A stretch of 64,000 bases of DNA from Myxococcota bacterium (GTDB taxonomy: Bacteria > Myxococcota_A > JAVEVO01). Of this stretch, positions 3,482 through 11,050 are shown in pieces. Each line of letters begins with the position of its first letter. Positions within the stretch are counted from its first letter, which is position 1. Under the pieces are notes generated by a model. The model was not told the DNA's origin. It saw only the letters and a list, made by a program, of their open reading frames with translations, and ran no database searches. The translations under genes and the position numbers were made by a program. The stretch is from the NCBI GenBank assembly GCA_034005005.1, contig JAVEVO010000003.1, positions 25,493 through 89,492 of the forward strand, written 5' to 3'.

Positions 3482-4558
3482 ATGGGCAGGTCGCCTGAGG
3501 TGCGGGGGGAGCCAGACCCGGAGTCGGAGCCAGACCCGGAGTCGGAGCCAGACCCGGAATCGGAGCCAGACCCGGAATCGGAGCCAGACCCGGAGCTGGA
3601 CCCGGAGTCCGAGGAGGAGTCCGATCTGGCTGGCGACCAGGCCGGCGCGGGCACCTTGTACGTCGTCGCGACGCCCATCGGCAACCTCGAGGACATCACC
3701 CGGCGCGCGGTGCGGATCCTCGGGGAGGTCGACTGGGTCGCGTGCGAGGACACCCGGCGCTCCAGGCAGCTCCTGACCCACCTCGGCCTGCGGCAGCGGC
3801 TGATCTCCCTCTGGCAGGGGAACGAGGCCTCCCGCACGGGCGAGCTGGTGGAGCGCTTGCAGCGGGGGGAGCGTGGCGCCCTCATCAGCGACGGGGGCAC
3901 GCCCTTGGTCTCCGACCCGGGGTTCTTGCTCGTGCGGGCGGCCCGCCAGGCGGGAGTGGCGGTGGTGGCGGTGCCCGGCCCCTGCGCCGCGCTCGCCGCG
4001 CTCGCCAGCGCCGGGTTGCCCGCGGATCCCTTCCTCTTCGTGGGCTTCTTGCCGCGCAGCCCCGGCCGACTCCGCAAGCGCTTGCTCCTCTTCCGGGAGC
4101 TGCCGGCCACCCTGGTGATCTACGAGTCGCCCGAGCGGATCGCCGCGACCCTCCAGGCCACCGCCTCGATCCTCGGCGACCGACCCGCGGCCATCGCCCG
4201 GGAGCTCACGAAGCTCCACGAGGAGGTGCGCACCGGGACCCTCACGGAGCTGGCGGCCCACTACCACGGCCGGCGCGTCCGGGGAGAGGTGGTCCTGCTG
4301 GTCACCGGCGCGCCCGCGGCCGGGTCGGCCGAGGAGGAGGACGCCCGGCCGGCCGCTGCCGCATCCCTGGCCCGGCAGTTGCTCGGGGACGGGCACTCTC
4401 CCCGGGAGGCCACGCGGCGCGTCGCCGCGCAGCTCGGGCTGCCCCGCAAGGCCGCGTACGCCCTGGTCTTGCAGGTGGCGGCCGCGGCGGCGGACGAGCC
4501 GGCGGCGCCCGCGCCGCGCGCTCACGGGCCCGCCGGGCCACGAGAGGAGACCGAGTGA
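3482..4558 (+). CDS. rsmI: 16S rRNA (cytidine1402-2'-O)-methyltransferase RsmI with an unusual acidic repeat N-terminal extension
   Basis: Carries the TLYVVATPIGNLEDIT, VACEDTR, ALISDGGTPLVSDPG and FLFVGFLP motifs typical of RsmI (tetrapyrrole-methylase fold). A Shine-Dalgarno-like sequence lies upstream of the ATG at 3482. Confidence 0.85.
   Translation: MGRSPEVRGEPDPESEPDPESEPDPESEPDPESEPDPELDPESEEESDLAGDQAGAGTLYVVATPIGNLEDITRRAVRILGEVDWVACEDTRRSRQLLTHLGLRQRLISLWQGNEASRTGELVERLQRGERGALISDGGTPLVSDPGFLLVRAARQAGVAVVAVPGPCAALAALASAGLPADPFLFVGFLPRSPGRLRKRLLLFRELPATLVIYESPERIAATLQATASILGDRPAAIARELTKLHEEVRTGTLTELAAHYHGRRVRGEVVLLVTGAPAAGSAEEEDARPAAAASLARQLLGDGHSPREATRRVAAQLGLPRKAAYALVLQVAAAAADEPAAPAPRAHGPAGPREETE
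3508..3615 (+). repeat. 18-bp tandem repeat (gagccagacccggagtcg) x ~5-6, encoding (EPDPES)n at the RsmI N-terminus
   Basis: Directly visible perfect and near-perfect 18-bp tandem units. They lie in frame inside the rsmI ORF. Confidence 0.85.
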
Positions 4559-4893
4559 TGGATCCGCTGACGCTCGCGCACGGCAACATCTACCTCTTCA
4601 AGCTGCTCTTCTGTCTCGCCATGGTGGGCTGCTTCCTCCTCGCCGCGGTCCTCGGCTTCTTGCGCAGCAAGCACCTGCGTGGCCTGTCGCTGGTCGCGAC
4701 GGGGTTGCTCTTCCTCGCGTGCGGCTGGGGGTTCGATGCGGTCGCCTACTCGCCCCTGTACTCGCCCGAGACGCCCTTCGAGGGGAGCATCCCCCACATC
4801 GCGGGGGCCTGGGGCTGCGCGAGCCTCGGTGGCGGGCTCGTCCTGCTCGGGCTCTTCCTGGCCCGGCCACGTCCGGCCGCTTCCCGGCGCTAG
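4558..4893 (+). CDS. small integral membrane protein (3 predicted TM helices), hypothetical
   Basis: Hydrophobic ORF whose ATG overlaps the rsmI stop (TGATG). Its TAG stop falls inside the CTAG terminus of the 184-bp repeat. Confidence 0.55.
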   Translation: MDPLTLAHGNIYLFKLLFCLAMVGCFLLAAVLGFLRSKHLRGLSLVATGLLFLACGWGFDAVAYSPLYSPETPFEGSIPHIAGAWGCASLGGGLVLLGLFLARPRPAASRR

Positions 4894-5073
4894 GAGCGTG
4901 TTGCGCAAAGCGTTCTGCTGCGGCGGCCGATGCATCGGCGCATGGTGCGTCAGCACCGGCCGATCCGTCCTCGACGTACCTCGAGTACGCCTGCGGCGTC
5001 TCGGCTCGGTGCTTCCTTCCCTGCGCCGCGCCTCGACCGCCTCGCGACGGACTTTTCCGCAATACGCTCCTAG
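4890..5073 (+). repeat. 184-bp MITE-like element copy A with ~22-bp terminal inverted repeats (ctaggagcgtgttgcg...cgcaatacgctcctag)
   Basis: Near-identical to the reverse complement of 6288..6471. Each copy begins and ends with CTAG and contains the internal palindrome gccgatgcatcggc. Confidence 0.7.
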
Positions 5074-5208
5074 GCTGGCCCGGTCCCCTCGCCCCGGCGC
5101 CGCGGGGAGCACCGCGGGTTGCCCCGGTCCCTGCCCATGGTATAGTGGCCGGGTTCGGGCCGGGCGTGCTCCGGGGGGAGCGGCTCGGCCACACGGAGGG
5201 CAGCCACG

Positions 5209-5343
5209 ATGGATATGTCGTTCCTCTACTCGCTATTCGACTCCTTCTGGAACTTCTTCCGGGACCTGTTCAAGCCCGCGGGCAAGAAGAAGAAGAAGGA
5301 GACCAAGAAGGGCACCCGCAAGGGAGTCAAGAAGAAGGCTTGA
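5209..5343 (+). CDS. small (44 aa) amphipathic, Lys-rich peptide MDMSFLYSLFDSFWNFFRDLFKPAGKKKKKETKKGTRKGVKKKA
   Basis: GGAGGG lies 8 nt upstream of the ATG. The ORF is below the size cut-off of the six-frame track. An aromatic, hydrophobic N-terminal half is followed by a poly-Lys tail. It lies inside the IR-bounded cassette. Confidence 0.35.
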   Translation: MDMSFLYSLFDSFWNFFRDLFKPAGKKKKKETKKGTRKGVKKKA

Positions 5344-5420
5344 GCCGGCAGCAGGCTGTCCTCTCTCGCCGGGACGCTCTCCCCTCGTGCCCCCGGCAGC
5401 CTCCCGAGTCGCCGTGGTCC

Positions 5421-6209
5421 TTGTCGGTCCGGGCGTGGCTGGCGCTGTTGCTGGGGTTCGTGGTCCCTGCTTGCGGTGTCTCCGAGACGACCCACAACGC
5501 GGCCCTGCGTGACGTGGAGCGCCTGAAGGCGAGCCTCGCGGCGCAGCAGCAGGCCGTGGCCGGTCAGGCGGCCCAGCGCTCGGACAGCCTCGCGGCGCAG
5601 GCCCAGGAGCTCGAGCAGTGCCGCCAGGCGGCCGAGCAGGCTCGGGTCCGGCAGGAGGAGCTGCTCGCGGAGCGGACTCGCCTCGCCGCCCAGCTCGCGC
5701 AGAGCGAGGCGAGCTTCGCCAGCGTGCGGGAGCGCCTCGAAGGACTGGAAGTCACCCAGGACCGGTTCCACCGCAACCTCCAGCTCGAGCTGTTCCGGCT
5801 GCTGGAAGAGGACCGGCTGCAGCTCGAGCGGGTCGCGGGGCGGTCCGTGATCCGGCTGCCGGCCACGGCCTTCGTCCCCAAGAAGGTCGGGCTGAGCGCG
5901 GCCGGAGAGGGGCTGCTCATGGAGCTGGCCCGGGTGCTCGCGCCCCTGCCCGAGGCCCTCGTCCTGGTCGTCGGGCAGGCCCCCGGGCTCTCCCTGGCGA
6001 GCGGTCCCTGGCCCCGCTCCTGGCGTCTCGCCTGCTCCCGGGCCGGACGGGTCGCCCGGCGGCTCGGGACCAACGGGGTGCCGGCCGCGCACCTCGCGAC
6101 CTCGTGCCGGGCGCCGCTCGCCAGCGATCCGACCCCGGCCAAGGCCGGCCGGTCCTCCCCGGGTGAGCCCCGCGTGGAGCTGCACCTCACCTCGCAACCG
6201 GTCCCCTGA
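5421..6209 (+). CDS. lipoprotein with coiled-coil region and degenerate OmpA/MotB-like C-terminal domain
   Basis: Signal peptide with lipobox LLGFVVPAC. A long Gln/Ala-rich heptad region follows (LAAQQQAVAGQAAQ...). The C-terminal segment resembles an OmpA-like peptidoglycan-binding domain. The start is inferred as TTG at 5421, with no ATG or GTG in frame, so it is uncertain. Confidence 0.55.
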   Translation: MSVRAWLALLLGFVVPACGVSETTHNAALRDVERLKASLAAQQQAVAGQAAQRSDSLAAQAQELEQCRQAAEQARVRQEELLAERTRLAAQLAQSEASFASVRERLEGLEVTQDRFHRNLQLELFRLLEEDRLQLERVAGRSVIRLPATAFVPKKVGLSAAGEGLLMELARVLAPLPEALVLVVGQAPGLSLASGPWPRSWRLACSRAGRVARRLGTNGVPAAHLATSCRAPLASDPTPAKAGRSSPGEPRVELHLTSQPVP

Positions 6210-6287
6210 GCGATCACCCAGCACCTCACCGTCCGGGTTCGCTGGCGGCGAGCGGGCCGGGCCCAAACAGGACGAGCACTCCGTCGT

Positions 6288-6471
6288 CTAGGAGCGTGTT
6301 GCGGAAAAGTCCGTCGCGAGGCGGTCGAGGCGCGGCGCAGGGAAGGAAGCACCGAGCCGAGACGCCGCAGGCGTACTCGAGGTACGTCGAGGACGGATCG
6401 GCCGGTGCTGACGCACCATGCGCCGATGCATCGGCCGCCGCAGCAGAACGCTTTTCGCAACACGCTCCTAG
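6288..6471 (-). repeat. 184-bp MITE-like element copy B, inverted relative to copy A
   Basis: About 98% identical to the reverse complement of 4890..5073, with 3 mismatches by eye. Its terminal CTAG supplies the TAG stop of pcnB on the minus strand. Confidence 0.7.
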
Positions 6472-7844
6472 CGGTTCCGGGGGCCGTACCAGCGGCTGCG
6501 GCGGGGGCGCCGGCGGGGCCGAGCCGGGTCGTCTGGCTCCCCGGCGGGAGGGAGGGGGGCCGCGGGAGGAGGGGTGACCGGCTCCCCCTCACGGGGAGCG
6601 GGATGCTCGCCGCGTTGCTGGAGGTCTCGCCGCAACTGGAGGATCCGATCGAGGGGGTCGCCCTCCAGCCGGCGGCCGAGCTCGTGGAGGAAGAGCGCCT
6701 CGCCGAGGCCGGGGCGCCGGAGGAGCGCATCGCGGTGCCCCCCCGAGCGTCGGCGGCGGGCCGCGAGCCGGCGTTCGGTGATGAACACCTGCTTGAGCCG
6801 CTCCGTCTCCCGTCGCGGGAGCCTCATCCGGGTGGCGAACTCACCCACGATCTGGTCCACGGCCGCGCCGAGGTTCGTCGGGTTCTCGCGGGCCAGCCGG
6901 TGCAGGATCGGCAGATAGCCCACGACGGCGAGGAGGAGGGCGTCCTCGGGGACCCCCTGGCGGGCGGTGGTCTCGTCGAGCAGCTCGAGCAAGCGCCAGA
7001 AGCGGCCGGCCGTGGGCGGGACGGGGGCCTCGGGAGGCGGGGCCTCCGTCTCGCCGGTGGCGACGAGGTACTCCTGGACCTCCGGGAGCAGGATCGCGAG
7101 CTGTCCGGAGCGGAGCAGCAAGGTCAAGGTGGTGCGGGCGTGGGGGCCACGCAGCAGGCGGAAGATCTCCTCGAGCAAGCGTGGCGGGGCGGCGCGCCGG
7201 ATCTCCTCGCCATGGTGGAGCATCGCCGCCCAGAGCAGGGGATCGATGGTCAGGTCGAGGCGGCTGGCGAACTTGATCGCCCGGAGGATGCGGACCGGGT
7301 CCTCCTGGATGCGGATCTCGGGGTCACCGATGGCCCGGACGGTGCGGGCCGTGATATCGGGCAGCCCGTGGACGTGATCGAGGATCTCGCGGGTGTGCAG
7401 ATCGTAGAACAGCCCGTTGATCGTGAAGTCCCGACGGCGGGCATCCTCGGCGGGCGTGCCGAAGAGGTTGTCGTCCGTGATCAGCAGGTCCTCGTCCTCG
7501 GCGAGCTCCACCCCGTTGTCCAACCGCTCGGCCCAGGGGGCGCGGCGGAACGTGGCGACCTCGATGACCTTGCCGGCCCGGAAGAAGATGTGCGCCAGGC
7601 GGAAGCGCCGCCCGATGATCTTGGAGTTGCGGAAAATGCGACGAATTTCGCGTGGTTGCGCTGCGGTGGCGACGTCGAAATCCTTGGGGGTGACGCCGAG
7701 CAGCAGGTCCCGGACGCAGCCCCCGACGAGATAGGCCTCGAAGTGGTAGCGGCGGAGCCGTCGGACGACCGTGACCACGTCTTCGTCCAGCAGGCCGGGC
7801 GGGAGGGGATGATAGACACGGTGCGGAGGGCTGTCCCAGTCCAT
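6468..7844 (-). CDS. pcnB: poly(A) polymerase I / tRNA nucleotidyltransferase family protein
   Basis: Carries YLVGGCVRDLLLG, PKDFDVAT, IGRRFRLAHI and IEVATFR motifs, with an Arg-rich C-terminus. The start is assigned to the ATG encoding MDWDSPP (7844). The upstream part of the longer track ORF is Pro/Arg-rich, low-complexity and non-homologous. Confidence 0.85.
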   Translation of the reverse strand: MDWDSPPHRVYHPLPPGLLDEDVVTVVRRLRRYHFEAYLVGGCVRDLLLGVTPKDFDVATAAQPREIRRIFRNSKIIGRRFRLAHIFFRAGKVIEVATFRRAPWAERLDNGVELAEDEDLLITDDNLFGTPAEDARRRDFTINGLFYDLHTREILDHVHGLPDITARTVRAIGDPEIRIQEDPVRILRAIKFASRLDLTIDPLLWAAMLHHGEEIRRAAPPRLLEEIFRLLRGPHARTTLTLLLRSGQLAILLPEVQEYLVATGETEAPPPEAPVPPTAGRFWRLLELLDETTARQGVPEDALLLAVVGYLPILHRLARENPTNLGAAVDQIVGEFATRMRLPRRETERLKQVFITERRLAARRRRSGGHRDALLRRPGLGEALFLHELGRRLEGDPLDRILQLRRDLQQRGEHPAPREGEPVTPPPAAPLPPAGEPDDPARPRRRPRRSRWYGPRNR

Positions 7845-8019: not shown

Positions 8020-9378
8020 GTGCTAGGTGAGGAGGAGGAGCAGCAGGTGAATGGCCGAGGAGGAGCAGTGACTCCCAGGAAGGCGGAAGAGCGGTTGCCG
8101 GTCGCATCCCTCCTGGGCCGCCTGGTGGCTCTGGGAGCTGCGCTCGGCGTCGCGGACGGGCTGCTGCTGGGCCTGATCGGCCCCGTCGGGGAGGCCTCCA
8201 CCTGGGCCGCGGCGATCCACCTCGGCGTCCTCGCGGGGCTCGCCTCTCTGCTCCTGGCCATGGTCCTCGCGCCGCTCATGCTGGCCTTGCGACGCTTCAC
8301 CTTTTTGGTCCGGCACCTCTCGGATGCTCTCTTCTCCCTGCTCGGCCTGGCGGGGGTGGCGACGGCCGGCTACGTCCTGATCCGGCAGCCGAGCTGGTTC
8401 TCCTTCGACCTGCGCCTGCTCGTCCTCGCCGCGCTGCTGTTGCTCGGTCTGCTGCTGGTCCGCAGCTCCCTCGGCCAGCCGCGGCCGGCCCGGATCTTCG
8501 CCGGCCCGACGCTGCTCGCGGGCCTGGCGGTGGCCTTGCTCACGGGTGGGCTGTTGATGCTCCAGCAGCCCCTGGCCATCTCGACTCACGACGGCCTCGC
8601 CCGCAGCGTCAGCGGCTCCACCCTGCTGCGGCCTCTGCGGCATCTGGCCGACGAGGACCGGGATGGTGCCCCCCGCTGGCTCTGCAGCCTGGACTGCGAC
8701 TGCGACGATCACGACCCGACCCGGGCGCCGTGGGCGCTCGACCTCGCCGGGGATGGTCACGACGCCGACTGCGACGACCGGGACGGTCCGGCCACCCGCC
8801 TGCTCCCCGAGCCCGTGGACCTGCCGGAGCGGGTGCTGGTCTTCGAGCCCGACGAGCTCTCGGAGGCCCCGTCCGCGGCGCCTTCCCCGGCCCCGGCCGC
8901 GGCGCCTCCCCCGGCCCCGGCCGCGGCGCCTCCCCCGGCCCCGGTCGCAGCGCCTCCCCCGGCCCCGGTCGCGGCGCCTCCCCCGGCCCCGGCCGCGGCG
9001 CCTCCCCCGGCCGCCTCCCCGGCCCCGGCCCCCGCACCCCCGGGAGCCGGGAGCTCCCTGGGGGCCGCGGGGCCGAGCGATCAGCTCCTCGCAGCCTGCC
9101 GGCGGGGGCTCGGGCGGGAGTTCGGGGGCGCTCGCCCAGCCCGCGCGCTCGCCGGGGCGGTCGGCCGTTGGGCTCCGCAGCCCGGCGCGGCGCTGGTTCT
9201 TCCTGAAAGACATCCACTTTCGAGTGGTTGCGGACCTCTTCGGGGATGTCCGCTCCGGGATGAGCCGCGCCCGAGCGCTTTCCTGGGCTCCGGCGCTGGT
9301 TCCTCCTCCTCCCTCCCGGGCTCGCGCCCGGGCTCCGGCACGCTTCTTGCCGTTCACCGTCCCGAGGTGCTAGCATGA
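8020..9378 (+). CDS. polytopic membrane protein with MopE-like half motif (CDCDDHDP...DCDDRDG) and Pro/Ala-rich repeat tail; 3' end uncertain
   Basis: Several hydrophobic helices, then a Cys/Asp-rich motif, then an (APPPAPAAA)x5 repeat. GTG at 8020 or 8047 follows a GAGGAGGAGGAG stretch. The region after 9150 is low-complexity and may not be translated. Confidence 0.5.
   Translation: MLGEEEEQQVNGRGGAVTPRKAEERLPVASLLGRLVALGAALGVADGLLLGLIGPVGEASTWAAAIHLGVLAGLASLLLAMVLAPLMLALRRFTFLVRHLSDALFSLLGLAGVATAGYVLIRQPSWFSFDLRLLVLAALLLLGLLLVRSSLGQPRPARIFAGPTLLAGLAVALLTGGLLMLQQPLAISTHDGLARSVSGSTLLRPLRHLADEDRDGAPRWLCSLDCDCDDHDPTRAPWALDLAGDGHDADCDDRDGPATRLLPEPVDLPERVLVFEPDELSEAPSAAPSPAPAAAPPPAPAAAPPPAPVAAPPPAPVAAPPPAPAAAPPPAASPAPAPAPPGAGSSLGAAGPSDQLLAACRRGLGREFGGARPARALAGAVGRWAPQPGAALVLPERHPLSSGCGPLRGCPLRDEPRPSAFLGSGAGSSSSLPGSRPGSGTLLAVHRPEVLA
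8876..9012 (+). repeat. 27-bp tandem repeat x5 (gcgcctcccccggccccggccgcg...), encoding APPPAPAAA repeats
   Basis: Directly visible tandem units with single-base variants (gcc/gtc). Confidence 0.85.
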
Positions 9379-9406: not shown

Positions 9407-11050
9407 GTGACCGGGATGGCCAGGGGCAAAGGCATCTCCATCGGCCTCAAGCTGGCCGCGGTCAGCACGGGGGTGATCACGCTCCTGGTGGCGATGGTCG
9501 GCTACCTCAACTACTCGGAGGTCCGCCGCGCCTACGAGGACGCGGCCAGCCGGGACCAGCAGCGTCGCCTGCGCGCCCTGCGGGACAACGCCGTGGTCAC
9601 CGGGCGGCGGCTGGCGCACTCCGTCGGTCTCGCGCTCTCGGGCAACGACTACGCCGCCCTCGCCGAGCTGGTCTCCTCGGCGCAGCAAGACGATCCCCAG
9701 TGCCGCTACGGCCGGATCCTCGACCTCGACGGGCTGGTGATGGCCGACACCGATCCCGAGGTCCAGCGGAGCATCCACGAGGGCAAGCACCAGCGCCTGG
9801 AGGAGAAGCCCCCCGAGCAGGTGGCCATCCGGATCCGCTGTCCGGTGCAGGTCCCCGACTGCCCTACCGAGAAGCTGACCCCGGCCGCGGTCCTCGCGGA
9901 CGTGCGCGACGAGCTGACCTTCGAGGTCTCGGTGCCGGTGGCGCGAGGGGAGCAACGCTTCGGGACCATCGTCTTCGGTTACACCCTGAGCCAGCTCCGG
10001 CAGGAGCTCGGCGCCGCCCAGGAGCGGATGCAGCAGATGCTGGCCGCCAGTCTGCGGCGGGCCTTGCTCTTCGGCGCCCTGGCGATCCTCCTCGGCACCC
10101 TGGTGGCGGTCCTCCAGGGGATGGGCATGACCCGCACCCTGCAGAAGCTGGCCCATGCCGCGACCCGCATCGCCCACGGCGACTTCTCCAGCCGGGCCCC
10201 CATCGTGTCGCGCGACGAGATCGGCCAGCTCGCCGGCGCCTTCAACGACATGGCCGGCCGGCTGGAGGGGCTGATGGAGGAGCGGACCCGTCAGGCGACC
10301 CTCGAGAAGGAGATGGAGGTCGCCCGGGTGATCCAGGAGACGCTGATCCCGCCCCGGGACCTCGTCCGCCGCGGCTCGTTGCAGTTCGTCGGCGCGTTCG
10401 CCTCGGCGAGCATCTGCGGCGGCGACTGGTGGACCTACTCCGACCTGGCGGGGGGGCGGGTGCTCGTGGCTATCGGCGACGTCACCGGCCACGGGGTGCC
10501 CAGCGCGATGATCACCGCCGCGGCCAAGTCGGCCCTCGACACCCTGCGCCACACCACGGGCTCCGATCTCTCGGTCACCTACCTGCTCGAGGAGATGAAC
10601 AAGACGATCTACGCCGCCGCGCAGCGCAAGCTCGTCATGACCTTCTTCGCGTCGATCTACGACGAGTCGACGCGCACCTTGACCTTCTCCAACGCGGGCC
10701 ACAACTTCCCCTACCTGATCCATCCGGGGGGAGACGGCCGGCCACCACGCGTCGGTGTGCTCATGACCCGCGGCAATCGCCTGGGAGACGACTGGGAGTC
10801 CCACTTCATCGCGCGCACCGCCACACTCTCTCCCGGCGACGTCGTGGTCTGGTACACCGACGGCCTCATCGAGGGCACCAACCCCCAGGGCGAGGCGTTC
10901 GGCGACCGCCGCCTGCGCCGGGTGCTGACGGAGCTCTGCGAGCGCTCGCCCGAGGAGATCCTCGAGGCGACGCTGCGCGCCTTCCGGGAGCATCAGCAGG
11001 AGGCAGCCCTGCAGGACGACATCACCCTGGTCGTGGCCAGGGTCGGCTAG
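9407..11050 (+). CDS. membrane sensor with HAMP domain and PP2C-type (RsbU/SpoIIE-like) serine phosphatase domain
   Basis: N-terminal TM helix and periplasmic region, a second TM helix, then HAMP (IAHGDFSSRAPIVSRDEIGQLAGAFNDMAGRL). PPM motifs follow (GGDWWTY, IGDVTGHGVPSAM, NAGH, VVWYTDGLIE). Confidence 0.8.
   Translation: MTGMARGKGISIGLKLAAVSTGVITLLVAMVGYLNYSEVRRAYEDAASRDQQRRLRALRDNAVVTGRRLAHSVGLALSGNDYAALAELVSSAQQDDPQCRYGRILDLDGLVMADTDPEVQRSIHEGKHQRLEEKPPEQVAIRIRCPVQVPDCPTEKLTPAAVLADVRDELTFEVSVPVARGEQRFGTIVFGYTLSQLRQELGAAQERMQQMLAASLRRALLFGALAILLGTLVAVLQGMGMTRTLQKLAHAATRIAHGDFSSRAPIVSRDEIGQLAGAFNDMAGRLEGLMEERTRQATLEKEMEVARVIQETLIPPRDLVRRGSLQFVGAFASASICGGDWWTYSDLAGGRVLVAIGDVTGHGVPSAMITAAAKSALDTLRHTTGSDLSVTYLLEEMNKTIYAAAQRKLVMTFFASIYDESTRTLTFSNAGHNFPYLIHPGGDGRPPRVGVLMTRGNRLGDDWESHFIARTATLSPGDVVVWYTDGLIEGTNPQGEAFGDRRLRRVLTELCERSPEEILEATLRAFREHQQEAALQDDITLVVARVG

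Follow-up and report, generated by a model that had tools for sequence, protein, structure and literature searches.

IS630 (Tc1-mariner) elements insert at CTAG and duplicate the central TA. Insertion at CTAG or YTAA, with duplication of those 4 nt, has been described for MITEPsy1, an IS5-derived element of about 100 nt from Pseudomonas syringae (PMC3189936). In the IS1182 family, the excerpted description of MITEPye1 from Paracoccus yeei presents a non-coding, intergenic, IS1182-derived MITE whose 18-bp terminal inverted repeats (TIRs) match those of IS1182-family insertion sequences (ISs), with 4-bp direct repeats, a copy number of 1–3 per chromosome and, by prediction, a long RNA stem–loop; the same excerpt states neither the sequence of the direct repeats nor any link to stop codons (PMC11578231). 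Direct repeats of 4 bp and long stem–loops are also reported for ISMac2-type IS1182-derived MITEs (PMC3852290), and IS1272, a staphylococcal member of the IS1182 family, is reported to replace stem–loop targets without target duplication (PMC5678879). On target duplication by IS1182 elements, our literature search returned no statement beyond the remark that some members target palindromes.

Here we analysed a 64-kb stretch of Myxococcota DNA (the window), in which two inverted 184-bp repeats, copies A and B, lie between the convergent genes for a small membrane protein and poly(A) polymerase (pcnB). Taken together, the results favour, with a probability of about 0.85, a reading in which a young MITE family of low copy number, which targets CTAG and would be mobilised in trans by an IS1182-family transposase, inserted here twice independently.

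The repeats, their neighbours and the DNA between them

A repeat finder reported inverted-repeat arms at 4888–5073 and 6288–6473 (186 nt, 99% complementary, 1214 nt apart), and alignment of 4890–5073 with the reverse complement of 6288–6471 bore out the 184-bp unit proposed in an earlier, sequence-only reading of this DNA while reducing its count of about three mismatches to two (2/184), at element positions 17 and 174. CTAG stands at the start and end of both units (4/4 ends), as that reading had stated, leaving an element proper of 176 bp, GAGCGTGTTGCG...CGCAACACGCTC, which is non-coding and almost fully self-complementary. Each unit carries TIRs of 20 nt at 90–95% identity, slightly shorter than the 22 bp or so first suggested, with a 16-nt core matching at 15/16 or 16/16 positions, and the expected internal palindrome was found in both copies as the 14-nt GCCGATGCATCGGC. 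When the window was searched for the 16-mer CTAGGAGCGTGTTGCG with up to three mismatches, exactly four matches were obtained, all at the four unit ends (chance expectation 0.58), and none of 100 shuffles reached four. The unit is small and codes for no transposase, its sole internal ORF being 47 aa. The coordinates of all features are given in Table 1.

Table 1. Features of the locus, in window coordinates
Feature	Position	Strand	Remarks
111-aa small membrane protein gene	4558..4893	+	JGI gene call on identical locus L106, mapped to the window; GC3 0.91
MITE copy A	4890..5073	+	176-bp element 4894-5069 with CTAG on each side; inverted repeat with copy B
Copy A outer TIR	4890..4909	+	CTAG + GAGCGTGTTGCGCAAA; CTAG 4890-4893 contains the upstream gene's TAG
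Copy A inner TIR	5054..5073	-	One mismatch, T at 5062; final CTAG 5070-5073
Promoter-like site	5119..5146	+	TTGCCC-16-TATAGT with TG; outside the MITE, in native DNA separating copy A from the peptide gene
44-aa peptide gene	5209..5343	+	Lys-rich tail; GC3 0.89; in relative L111, a 45-aa homologue precedes the lipoprotein homologue
262-aa coiled-coil lipoprotein-like gene	5421..6209	+	Weak OmpA-like C-terminal half; GC3 0.93
MITE copy B	6288..6471	-	Orientation opposite to copy A; 2/184 mismatches
Copy B inner TIR	6288..6307	+	Initial CTAG 6288-6291
Copy B outer TIR	6452..6471	-	CTAG 6468-6471 contains the pcnB stop (minus strand, 6468-6470)
pcnB, poly(A) polymerase, 458 aa	6468..7844	-	PolyA_pol and PolyA_pol_RNAbd domains

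Both flanking genes had been said to stop inside the outer CTAGs, and the independent JGI call, made for the same locus, agrees precisely, the 111-aa gene and the 458-aa pcnB having their stops in these CTAGs; the frames that end at TAG 4891–4893 (+) and at 6468–6470 (−) are long and GC3-rich. The 111-aa membrane protein had no Pfam match. The pcnB product matched P0002 at 100%, and its C-terminus coincides with the ends of the proteins of relatives; it is neither truncated nor extended compared with its homologues.

Between the copies, the sequence-only reading had placed a Lys-rich peptide ORF and an OmpA-like lipoprotein; both ORFs are present on the plus strand, and only the OmpA assignment has to be softened (E 5e-4, 20.7 bits, below the Pfam cutoff of 27.2). 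Composition of the interior (GC 0.732, GC3 0.89–0.93) is the same as that of the flanks. In a distant relative, L111, whose pcnB is 52% identical to that of the window, homologues of the peptide and lipoprotein are also paired, at 3.4 kb from pcnB and convergent with it as in the window, with no matching terminal repeat, which answers the earlier suggestion to look in relatives for the interior free of repeats. The L111 lipoprotein, a 262-aa protein located through synteny, shares 38% identity over 93 aa with that of the window (E 4e-10); the homologue search itself returned one cluster at 99% identity, the coiled-coil composition having probably swamped the word index. We found no second location of the 1.58-kb segment, which was seen at this locus only. 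As previously noted, the 64-kb window contained no transposase homologue when searched by tblastn with the cognate transposase described below, and a scan of the genes between 43 and 18.8 kb detected no domain typical of a recombinase, integrase or transposase. By composition and gene order, the 1.2 kb between the copies is ordinary resident DNA, and the description of the locus as a 1.58-kb cassette was abandoned on account of this native composition, the linkage of the gene pair to pcnB in the MITE-free L111, the lack of a second site and the lack of a nearby recombinase.

The wider family, its IS1182 partners and the CTAG target

The sequence-only reading had called for a count of further copies and had held that a unit confined to these two positions would speak against a mobile element. 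Further copies were found at unrelated loci: L113 (1646–1829) and L114 (2694–2877) are 96.7–97.8% identical to the window copies and L095 (2791–2974) is 84% identical, all with unrelated flanks, so that A, B, L113, L114 and L095 together place the unit at several sites, as expected of a MITE. The metagenome scan gave at least three loci, a lower bound as it missed the pattern-bearing contigs L105 and L116, while scans of viral contigs, one with a terminal and one with an internal pattern, gave no match. Four near-identical copies are known (A, B, L113 and L114), the source organism of L113 and L114 possibly differing from that of the window, and the differences among copies are star-like, being mostly substitutions private to one copy. 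Every copy is bordered by CTAG, replaced once by TTAG at one side of the L114 copy. L113 and L114 each have a single copy between convergent genes, with the stops of both genes in the terminal (C/T)TAG. Across the four close copies, six of the eight ends abut stop codons, all six at convergent-gene junctions; the L095 copy lies 119 bp past the nearest stop. A match of 10/12 positions between the flank of the copy B inner end and the left flank of L113 did not extend further, was absent at the other ends and was taken as chance.

The 16-nt terminus CTAGGAGCGTGTTGCG also bounds full-length elements of 1.5–1.8 kb that encode IS1182-family transposases. An identical terminus encloses 1606-bp elements in L056 and L040, each with a 453-aa ORF that matches NCBIfam IS1182 (NF033551, E 2.8e-109, 366 bits against a cutoff of 270) as well as Pfam DDE_Tnp_1, DDE_Tnp_1_6 and DUF772; these are the full-length ISs with the same TIRs that the sequence-only reading had proposed to look for. 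Homologous transposases adjoin the terminus in L069, L011, L013, L029, L028, L060 and L098, and in L056, L040, L069, L011 and L013 the terminus surrounds the transposase gene, making these cognate autonomous ISs. At the right end of L011 the match to the MITE end covers about 21 nt. The closest annotated plasmid homologues of the transposase are all named 'IS1182 family transposase'. Only some 18–21 terminal nt are shared with the full-length elements, so that none of the ISs found here could have given rise to the window MITE by internal deletion alone.

A scan of genome contigs for the 16-mer gave at least 104 loci, with the host of the window not among the matches listed; by chance alone, 596 Gb should contain about 500 matches to the 16-mer (one R allowed for), and single unpaired matches were given no evidential value. 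At least about 25 further CTAG-bounded short elements with this terminus, of 46–270 bp and mostly 150–270 bp, were present among the matches listed, and MITE families bounded by it occur in at least five phyla (Myxococcota, Cyanobacteria, Acidobacteriota, Planctomycetota and Proteobacteria). The MITE-like architecture recognised at the outset is supported by the small size, the terminal repeats, the other copies and the cognate ISs, and the suspected kinship with CTAG-targeting IS5-group elements came close, the cognate elements carrying transposases of the IS5-related IS1182 family. Judged by the ends it shares with IS1182-transposase elements, the 184-bp unit is a MITE of this family, a kind of element already known, and this comparison suggests that an IS1182 transposase would mobilise the 184-bp family.

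Direct evidence on the target came from a sister element. In the Roseomonas mucosa plasmid NZ_CP025191, an IS1182 element with ends CTAGGAGC...GCTCCTAG has CTAG on both sides at the filled site, and the empty site reads GGAAT-CTAG-GCTCG; the CTAG target is duplicated in this element. The idea that the CTAG is entirely part of the element and undergoes no duplication was rejected, since the empty site keeps one CTAG. The IS of L013 lies at the centre of a longer palindrome, acggcaca-CTAG-tgtgccgt. Because a single pre-existing CTAG is duplicated in the sister element, the stop codons of the flanking genes would be the target of insertion and not a gift of the element, which reverses cause and effect in the earlier statement that the repeat termini supply the stops. 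For the window insertions themselves no empty site was found among L105, L106, L107 and L115, which are filled, N-gapped or end inside the MITE, with four assemblies of the locus breaking or having gaps within the elements; for pcnB, the nearest relatives show no more than 63% identity (BLASTP) and have different DNA downstream of the gene. No empty site was found for L113 either, the only other contig, L116, having the same 177-bp intergenic gap and being filled. By comparison with the Roseomonas element, copies A and B were probably moved by the same CTAG-duplicating mechanism.

CTAG is scarce in the window, with 16 sites against 159 expected, a depletion of about 10-fold, in a host genome of 72.5% GC. 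The other 12 CTAGs, outside the MITE ends, are found largely at gene boundaries, some 3–6 of them apparently being real stop codons. We propose the following scheme. An IS1182-family DDE transposase would recognise the shared termini and move the 176-bp element in trans, a compatible transposase presumably being present in the host genome now or having been so formerly; an IS1182 element matching the window MITE would end in CTAGGAGCGTGTTGCGGAAA. Insertion would occur at the palindrome CTAG (occasionally TTAG) and leave CTAG on both sides, junctions for which duplication of a 4-bp target and duplication of TA beside G...C ends are equally valid readings. In a GC-rich genome with little CTAG, C+TAG stop codons would make up a large share of the surviving sites and insertions within genes would be selected against, so that copies would accumulate exactly at stop codons, where target duplication would regenerate the stop and leave the flanking proteins unchanged. 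On this view, the membrane-protein gene would have received copy A at its stop codon, and pcnB would have received copy B at its own.

Alternative readings of the locus

A first alternative adds to the insertion of MITEs and is compatible with it: the hairpin, once inserted, could have been kept by the host because it terminates transcription in both directions or stabilises mRNA 3′ ends between convergent genes. RNA folding, run on copy A only and on both strands, gave one long hairpin of −102.6 kcal/mol (z −7.2) and, for the opposite strand, equivalent to the plus strand of copy B, −116.5 kcal/mol (z −9.8), placing a very stable stem of about 90 bp directly after the stops. The prevalence of convergent junctions among the ends of the four close copies points the same way, as does L095, in which five stem pairs are changed on both sides and still paired. 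However, about eight pairs are broken in L095 against these five compensated, so that this single divergent sequence offers weak covariation, and its copy is the one distant from a stop. No intrinsic-terminator-like site was found anywhere in 4700–6700, a point in favour of such a role, but the hairpin itself lacks a U-tract (no T-run follows it), and Rfam gave no match at E ≤ 1 in 4000–7500 on either strand. The placement at stops follows already from CTAG targeting and CTAG scarcity, and we regard adoption by the host as unlikely. A broader form of the idea, in which the family, and perhaps all CTAGGAGCGTGTTGCG-ended elements across phyla, would be preferentially inserted or retained at the shared or adjacent stops of convergent genes as a two-way terminator or insulator, is doubtful to a somewhat greater degree; if true, the ~90-bp stem would serve GC-rich genomes that do without U-tract terminators, and a selfish IS1182 derivative would be routine 3′-end architecture.

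The repeats might also act as crossover sites for a recombinase or RecA, flipping the peptide–lipoprotein operon. Inverted repeats that are 99% identical and 1.2 kb apart are good substrates for homologous recombination in principle, and assemblers break or leave N-gaps in both of them, but such breaks are expected at any repeat. The nearby recombinase and the two orientations typical of Hin/Fim/shufflon-type segments were not found: the gene scan reported above was negative, and in both assemblies that span the junctions, the window and L106 (a JGI scaffold), the interior has one orientation relative to the flanks. A variant specific to one copy, in the inner terminal repeat, does not change sides among L105, L106 and L115, and the orientation of the interior matches that in L111. 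The promoter-like site of Table 1, the sole one in 4700–6700 (shuffle mean 0), lies inside the segment, and flipping would therefore not switch the operon. The same repeat, moreover, occurs singly elsewhere, and we consider inversion very improbable.

Least probable of all is a composite non-autonomous transposon, in which both MITEs and the intervening 1.2 kb moved as one into a CTAG between the convergent genes and brought the peptide and lipoprotein genes with them: inverted copies do bracket two genes, the outermost ends are intact and CTAG-flanked and the lipoprotein is almost without detectable homologues, but the interior has the GC and GC3 of the flanking genes, the gene pair stands near pcnB in the same orientation in the repeat-free L111, the inner ends have CTAGs of their own, the MITE occurs singly at other loci, and the supposed unit was found nowhere else. 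Two independent insertions into CTAG sites, the first of the options listed by the sequence-only reading, are favoured by these same inner CTAGs, single copies elsewhere and native interior.

Significance and comparison with described elements

Annotations should mark both repeats as inserted MITEs and class the intervening genes as resident, not as cargo. The locus illustrates how a CTAG-specific transposon in a GC-rich genome would land on stop codons, with target duplication leaving the neighbouring proteins intact; L113 and L114 are the extreme case, in which one element lies between convergent genes with both stops preserved. That one 16-nt IS1182-type terminus is common to MITEs of at least five phyla should benefit repeat libraries and help to account for contig breaks in metagenome assemblies. 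The locus offers a neat but unexceptional example of a type of mobile element already known, and it calls for no new mechanism.

Among the systems described above, IS630 elements share the CTAG target, and their duplication of TA fits the window junctions equally well; the autonomous partners found here are of the IS1182 family, not of the IS630 family. MITEPsy1 and ISPsy2 follow the same target logic as the window family, including the TTAG on one side of L114, while differing in their transposase family, IS5 proper, and in their terminal repeat, GGAAGGTCTGAAAAAGCC, which is unrelated to that of the window MITE. IS1272 belongs to the same family as the cognate ISs, some members of which target palindromes or inverted repeats, whereas here a short CTAG is found on both sides instead. 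The IS1182 ISs with CTAGGAGC...GCTCCTAG ends (L056/L040/L069, L011, L013 and Roseomonas) have CTAG on both sides, as does the window MITE; they are 1.5–1.8 kb long and encode a transposase, in contrast to the 176 bp of the MITE, which lacks a transposase ORF and has no sequence in common with them beyond the ends. MITEPye1, likened here by its description, resembles the window MITE in size class, non-coding character, intergenic position, IS1182-type TIRs, 4-bp repeats, low copy number and stem–loop, its host belonging to the Alphaproteobacteria and that of the window MITE to the Myxococcota.

The two repeats and their relatives

We consider it highly probable (about 0.85) that the two 184-bp inverted repeats of the window, copies A and B, arose by two independent insertions of one MITE family mobilised by an IS1182-type transposase, at CTAG stops. 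A repeat finder gave one dominant inverted repeat (arms 4888-5073 and 6288-6473, 186 nt, 99% complementary, spacing 1214 nt), and alignment of copy A with the reverse complement of copy B gave 182/184 identities, the mismatches lying at element positions 17 and 174. All four ends carry CTAG. The sequence-only reading described the repeats accurately overall, but the mismatches are two rather than about three and the terminal repeats 16-20 nt rather than about 22. With up to three mismatches allowed, the 16-mer CTAGGAGCGTGTTGCG occurred in the 64-kb window at exactly four sites, these same ends, as compared with 0.58 expected by chance, and none of 100 shuffles reached four. Self-complementarity of each unit is near-total along its whole length, with predicted folds of -58 kcal/mol as DNA (z -6.2) and -103 and -117 kcal/mol as RNA of the two strands (z -7.2 and -9.8); no Rfam family matched the unit.

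Scanning one genome per species for CTAGGAGCGTRTTGCG gave at least 104 loci; by our own arithmetic chance alone should produce several hundred matches in 596 Gb, so a lone match means little. Among the matches listed, a second, inverted terminus lay within 2 kb at 31 loci, and most of these pairs enclosed short elements of 46-270 bp, mainly 150-270 bp, in MAGs of Myxococcota, Acidobacteriota, Cyanobacteria, Planctomycetota and Proteobacteria, often in multiple copies per MAG and with CTAG at both ends in essentially all. Four of the listed pairs enclosed longer elements (1519-1803 bp). L056 and L040 share one of 1606 bp, whose single 453-aa ORF matched NCBIfam 'IS1182 family transposase' (E 2.8e-109, 366 bits, cutoff 270) and Pfam DDE_Tnp_1, DDE_Tnp_1_6 and DUF772. 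When this transposase was used in tblastn, homologues adjoined the same terminus in L069, L011, L013, L029, L028, L060 and L098, and none was found in the window; its closest plasmid-borne relatives (45-49% identity) were all annotated as IS1182 family transposases. The window MITE has only its ends in common with the full-length elements, the best match being about 21 nt at the right end of the L011 element (Archangium-like MAG). Among the matches listed, the identical CTAGGAGCGTGTTGCG was common to distinct MITE families in five phyla (L001-L104; Cyanobacteria, Planctomycetota, Acidobacteriota, Proteobacteria, Myxococcota), while the transposases tied to it across those lineages were only 39-56% identical. 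Ends in common with IS1182 elements, together with the repeat anatomy, indicate from sequence that the unit shows the anatomy that defines a MITE, its predicted autonomous partners being elements of the IS1182 family, which is related to IS5.

Some of these loci carried further structures. The CTAG-bounded mini-elements of L045 and L024 contain hardly anything besides the two terminal repeats, set back to back; they may be minimal MITEs or what an internal deletion left behind. The 1803-bp IS1182 element of L013 lies centrally in a longer palindrome (acggcaca-CTAG ... CTAG-tgtgccgt), which fits the palindrome targeting reported for some IS1182 members (PMC5678879); other copies lack such a palindrome. 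In L056, ctaggagg directly adjoins the 1606-bp element on its right and resembles the start of a second, truncated terminal repeat.

The window family itself was recovered from an Archangium sp. MAG (L095) and, by an internal 23-mer search, as at least two further copies, in metagenome contigs L113 and L114, whose flanks are unrelated to the window. The unit therefore also occurs beyond its two window positions; the sequence-only reading had named confinement to these two as the result that would count against it. Most differences among the four close copies (A, B, L113, L114) were private to single copies, a pattern that a small, recent burst out of a single source would produce. In the L095 copy, 5 of 69 predicted stem pairs are changed on both sides with pairing kept and about 8 are broken, weakly suggesting that the palindromic shape may be maintained. 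Beside the inner end of copy B, window 6276-6287 equals L113 1634-1645 at 10 of 12 positions (gcactccgtcgt, gcgctccgacgt), probably by chance, as the match extends no further and the other ends lack it.

Positions of the repeats, their relatives and other features (window coordinates unless a locus is named)
Feature	Position	Strand	Remark
Membrane-protein gene, 111 aa	4558-4893	+	TAG stop 4891-4893, within outer CTAG of copy A
Copy A	4890-5073
Promoter-like site	5119-5146
Peptide-lipoprotein pair	5209-6209
Copy B	6288-6471
pcnB	6468-7844	-	stop 6468-6470, within outer CTAG of copy B
rsmI ORF, EPDPES repeat	3482-3650
Pro/Ala-rich stretch	8700-9250
MITE copy, L095	2791-2974		84% identity to window MITE across all 184 bp
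MITE copy, L113	1646-1829		4 differences from copy A and 4 from copy B
MITE copy, L114	2694-2877		6 differences from window copies
Mini-element, L045	52-104		53 bp
Mini-element, L024	4939-4984		46 bp
IS1182 element in palindrome, L013	3711-5529
ctaggagg, L056	2742-2753
IS1182 element, NZ_CP025191 (L118)	332-1815
Peptide-lipoprotein pair, L111	11044-11966

CTAG and the flanking stop codons

The outer CTAGs contain the stops of both flanking genes, an observation of the sequence-only reading with which the ORF table, codon-position GC and gene calls made independently by JGI on a scaffold of identical sequence agree. CTAG is under-represented approximately 10-fold in the window (72.5% GC), with 16 occurrences where base composition predicts 159, and is almost missing from gene interiors. 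Four of the 16 are MITE ends. Of the remaining 12, those at 11047, 38322 and 52395 clearly serve as stops of long, GC3-rich genes, two or three are further probable stops, and the remainder lie mostly at gene boundaries. In L113, a single MITE separates two convergent MFS-transporter genes whose stops (1647-1649, +; 1826-1828, -) are both within its terminal CTAGs. In L114, a + strand gene stops within the left TTAG, and a - strand frame, open for 150 codons up to the contig end, stops within the right CTAG. These placements imply that each gene pair shared one overlapping palindromic stop site before insertion. Stops coincide with six of the eight ends of the four close copies. When a crude coding test was applied across all elements with the terminus, among the matches listed, 18/64 element ends fell on a gene-like stop, as did at least one end in 15/32 elements, as compared with 23/121 other CTAG sites of the same loci, an enrichment compatible with loss of intragenic insertions. 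The placement of the MITEs at stops is explained by target specificity and scarcity, because CTAG is the target and is scarce, lying mostly at stops or gene boundaries.

The IS1182 element of Roseomonas mucosa plasmid NZ_CP025191 has the ends CTAGGAGCCCGTCC...GGGACGAGCTCCTAG. When both its flanks were joined and run against the plasmid collection, two Roseomonas plasmids matched across the junction with exactly four additional bases. The empty site (...CAGGAAT-CTAG-GCTCGCC...) has one CTAG and the filled site one on each side, indicating at the sequence level that elements of this subgroup insert into an existing CTAG and duplicate it. The event could be either a 4-bp duplication or a TA duplication beside G...C ends, which yield the same sequences; the TTAG/CTAG pair of L114 fits a TA duplication without need of mutation. 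By analogy with the Roseomonas pair, both the membrane-protein gene and pcnB would have had their stops before the insertions, which would have preserved them, reversing the earlier proposal that the element termini supply the stops. The pcnB C-terminus ends at the same point as in homologues, consistent with this order. No empty site of the window insertions was found, all other assemblies of the locus being filled, N-gapped inside both MITEs or ending within them, and pcnB of even the closest relatives showing no more than about 63% identity (BLASTP). The N-gaps of the JGI scaffold L106 (2474-2529, 3804-3841) and contig ends of L105, L107 and L115 fall exactly inside the MITEs, making the locus a practical example of hairpin repeats breaking up metagenome assemblies.

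Other readings of the locus

The MITE hairpin could possibly terminate transcription in both directions or stabilise 3' ends; no canonical terminators were detected in the repeat region. Occasional RecA-mediated inversion between copies A and B may also occur.

The sequence-only reading had taken 4890-6471 as a 1.58-kb cassette, but native composition, synteny and its single location speak against this, and the evidence says that the stretch is not a unit. The interior has a GC of 0.732 and a GC3 of 0.89-0.93, the same as the flanking genes. L111 is a distant relative whose pcnB is 52% identical. Convergent with this pcnB, like their window counterparts, and 3.4 kb away from it are genes for a Lys-rich peptide of 45 aa (MSTAIINAIFDSF...KKKKK) and a protein of 262 aa; nowhere in that locus was a matching terminal repeat found. 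The N-terminal lipoprotein/coiled-coil part of the L111 protein shares 38% identity with the window lipoprotein (E 4e-10). The interior has the same orientation in both, which also argues against an origin by an inversion-generating replicative event, and the cassette was seen at the window locus only, among the matches listed. Upstream of pcnB, synteny with relatives is partial; a HAMP/SpoIIE gene is common to both, and a counterpart of the relatives' sulfatase-family gene was not detected in the window.

The first gene of the conserved pair encodes a peptide of 44-45 aa whose N-terminus is hydrophobic or amphipathic (xxFDSFxxFFxDLFK) and whose tail is poly-Lys; the second encodes a 262-aa coiled-coil lipoprotein, and neither product matched a Pfam family above threshold. 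Elsewhere in the window, the rsmI ORF starts with about five copies of the acidic tandem repeat EPDPES, which causes a spurious Trypan_PARP Pfam match; such a beginning is atypical of RsmI, whose real start codon may be situated further downstream. The gene divergent from pcnB contains a highly repetitive Pro/Ala-rich coding stretch (APPPAPAAA-like) with long open frames on both strands.

That the 184-bp repeats are crossover sites of an inversion switch for the peptide-lipoprotein operon is very unlikely on the evidence, since recombinase, integrase and transposase domains are all missing from the genes scanned between position 43 and 18.8 kb, the two junction-bridging assemblies show equal orientation, and the only promoter-like site lies within the segment, so that flipping would not switch the operon.

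Comparison with described MITEs

IS1182-derived MITEs have already been described. MITEPye1 of Paracoccus yeei, which is present in few copies, has 18-bp terminal repeats like those of ISPye18, direct repeats of 4 bp and a predicted long stem-loop (PMC11578231). In Methanosarcina acetivorans, MITEs of the ISMac2 type measure 160-169 bp and have 4-bp direct repeats (PMC3852290), and CTAG/YTAA duplication is documented for the IS5-derived MITEPsy1 (PMC3189936). Taken together with the IS1182-type termini, these precedents place the two window repeats, from an uncultured lineage of Myxococcota, as copies of one new MITE family that belongs to a known kind, the IS1182-derived MITEs.
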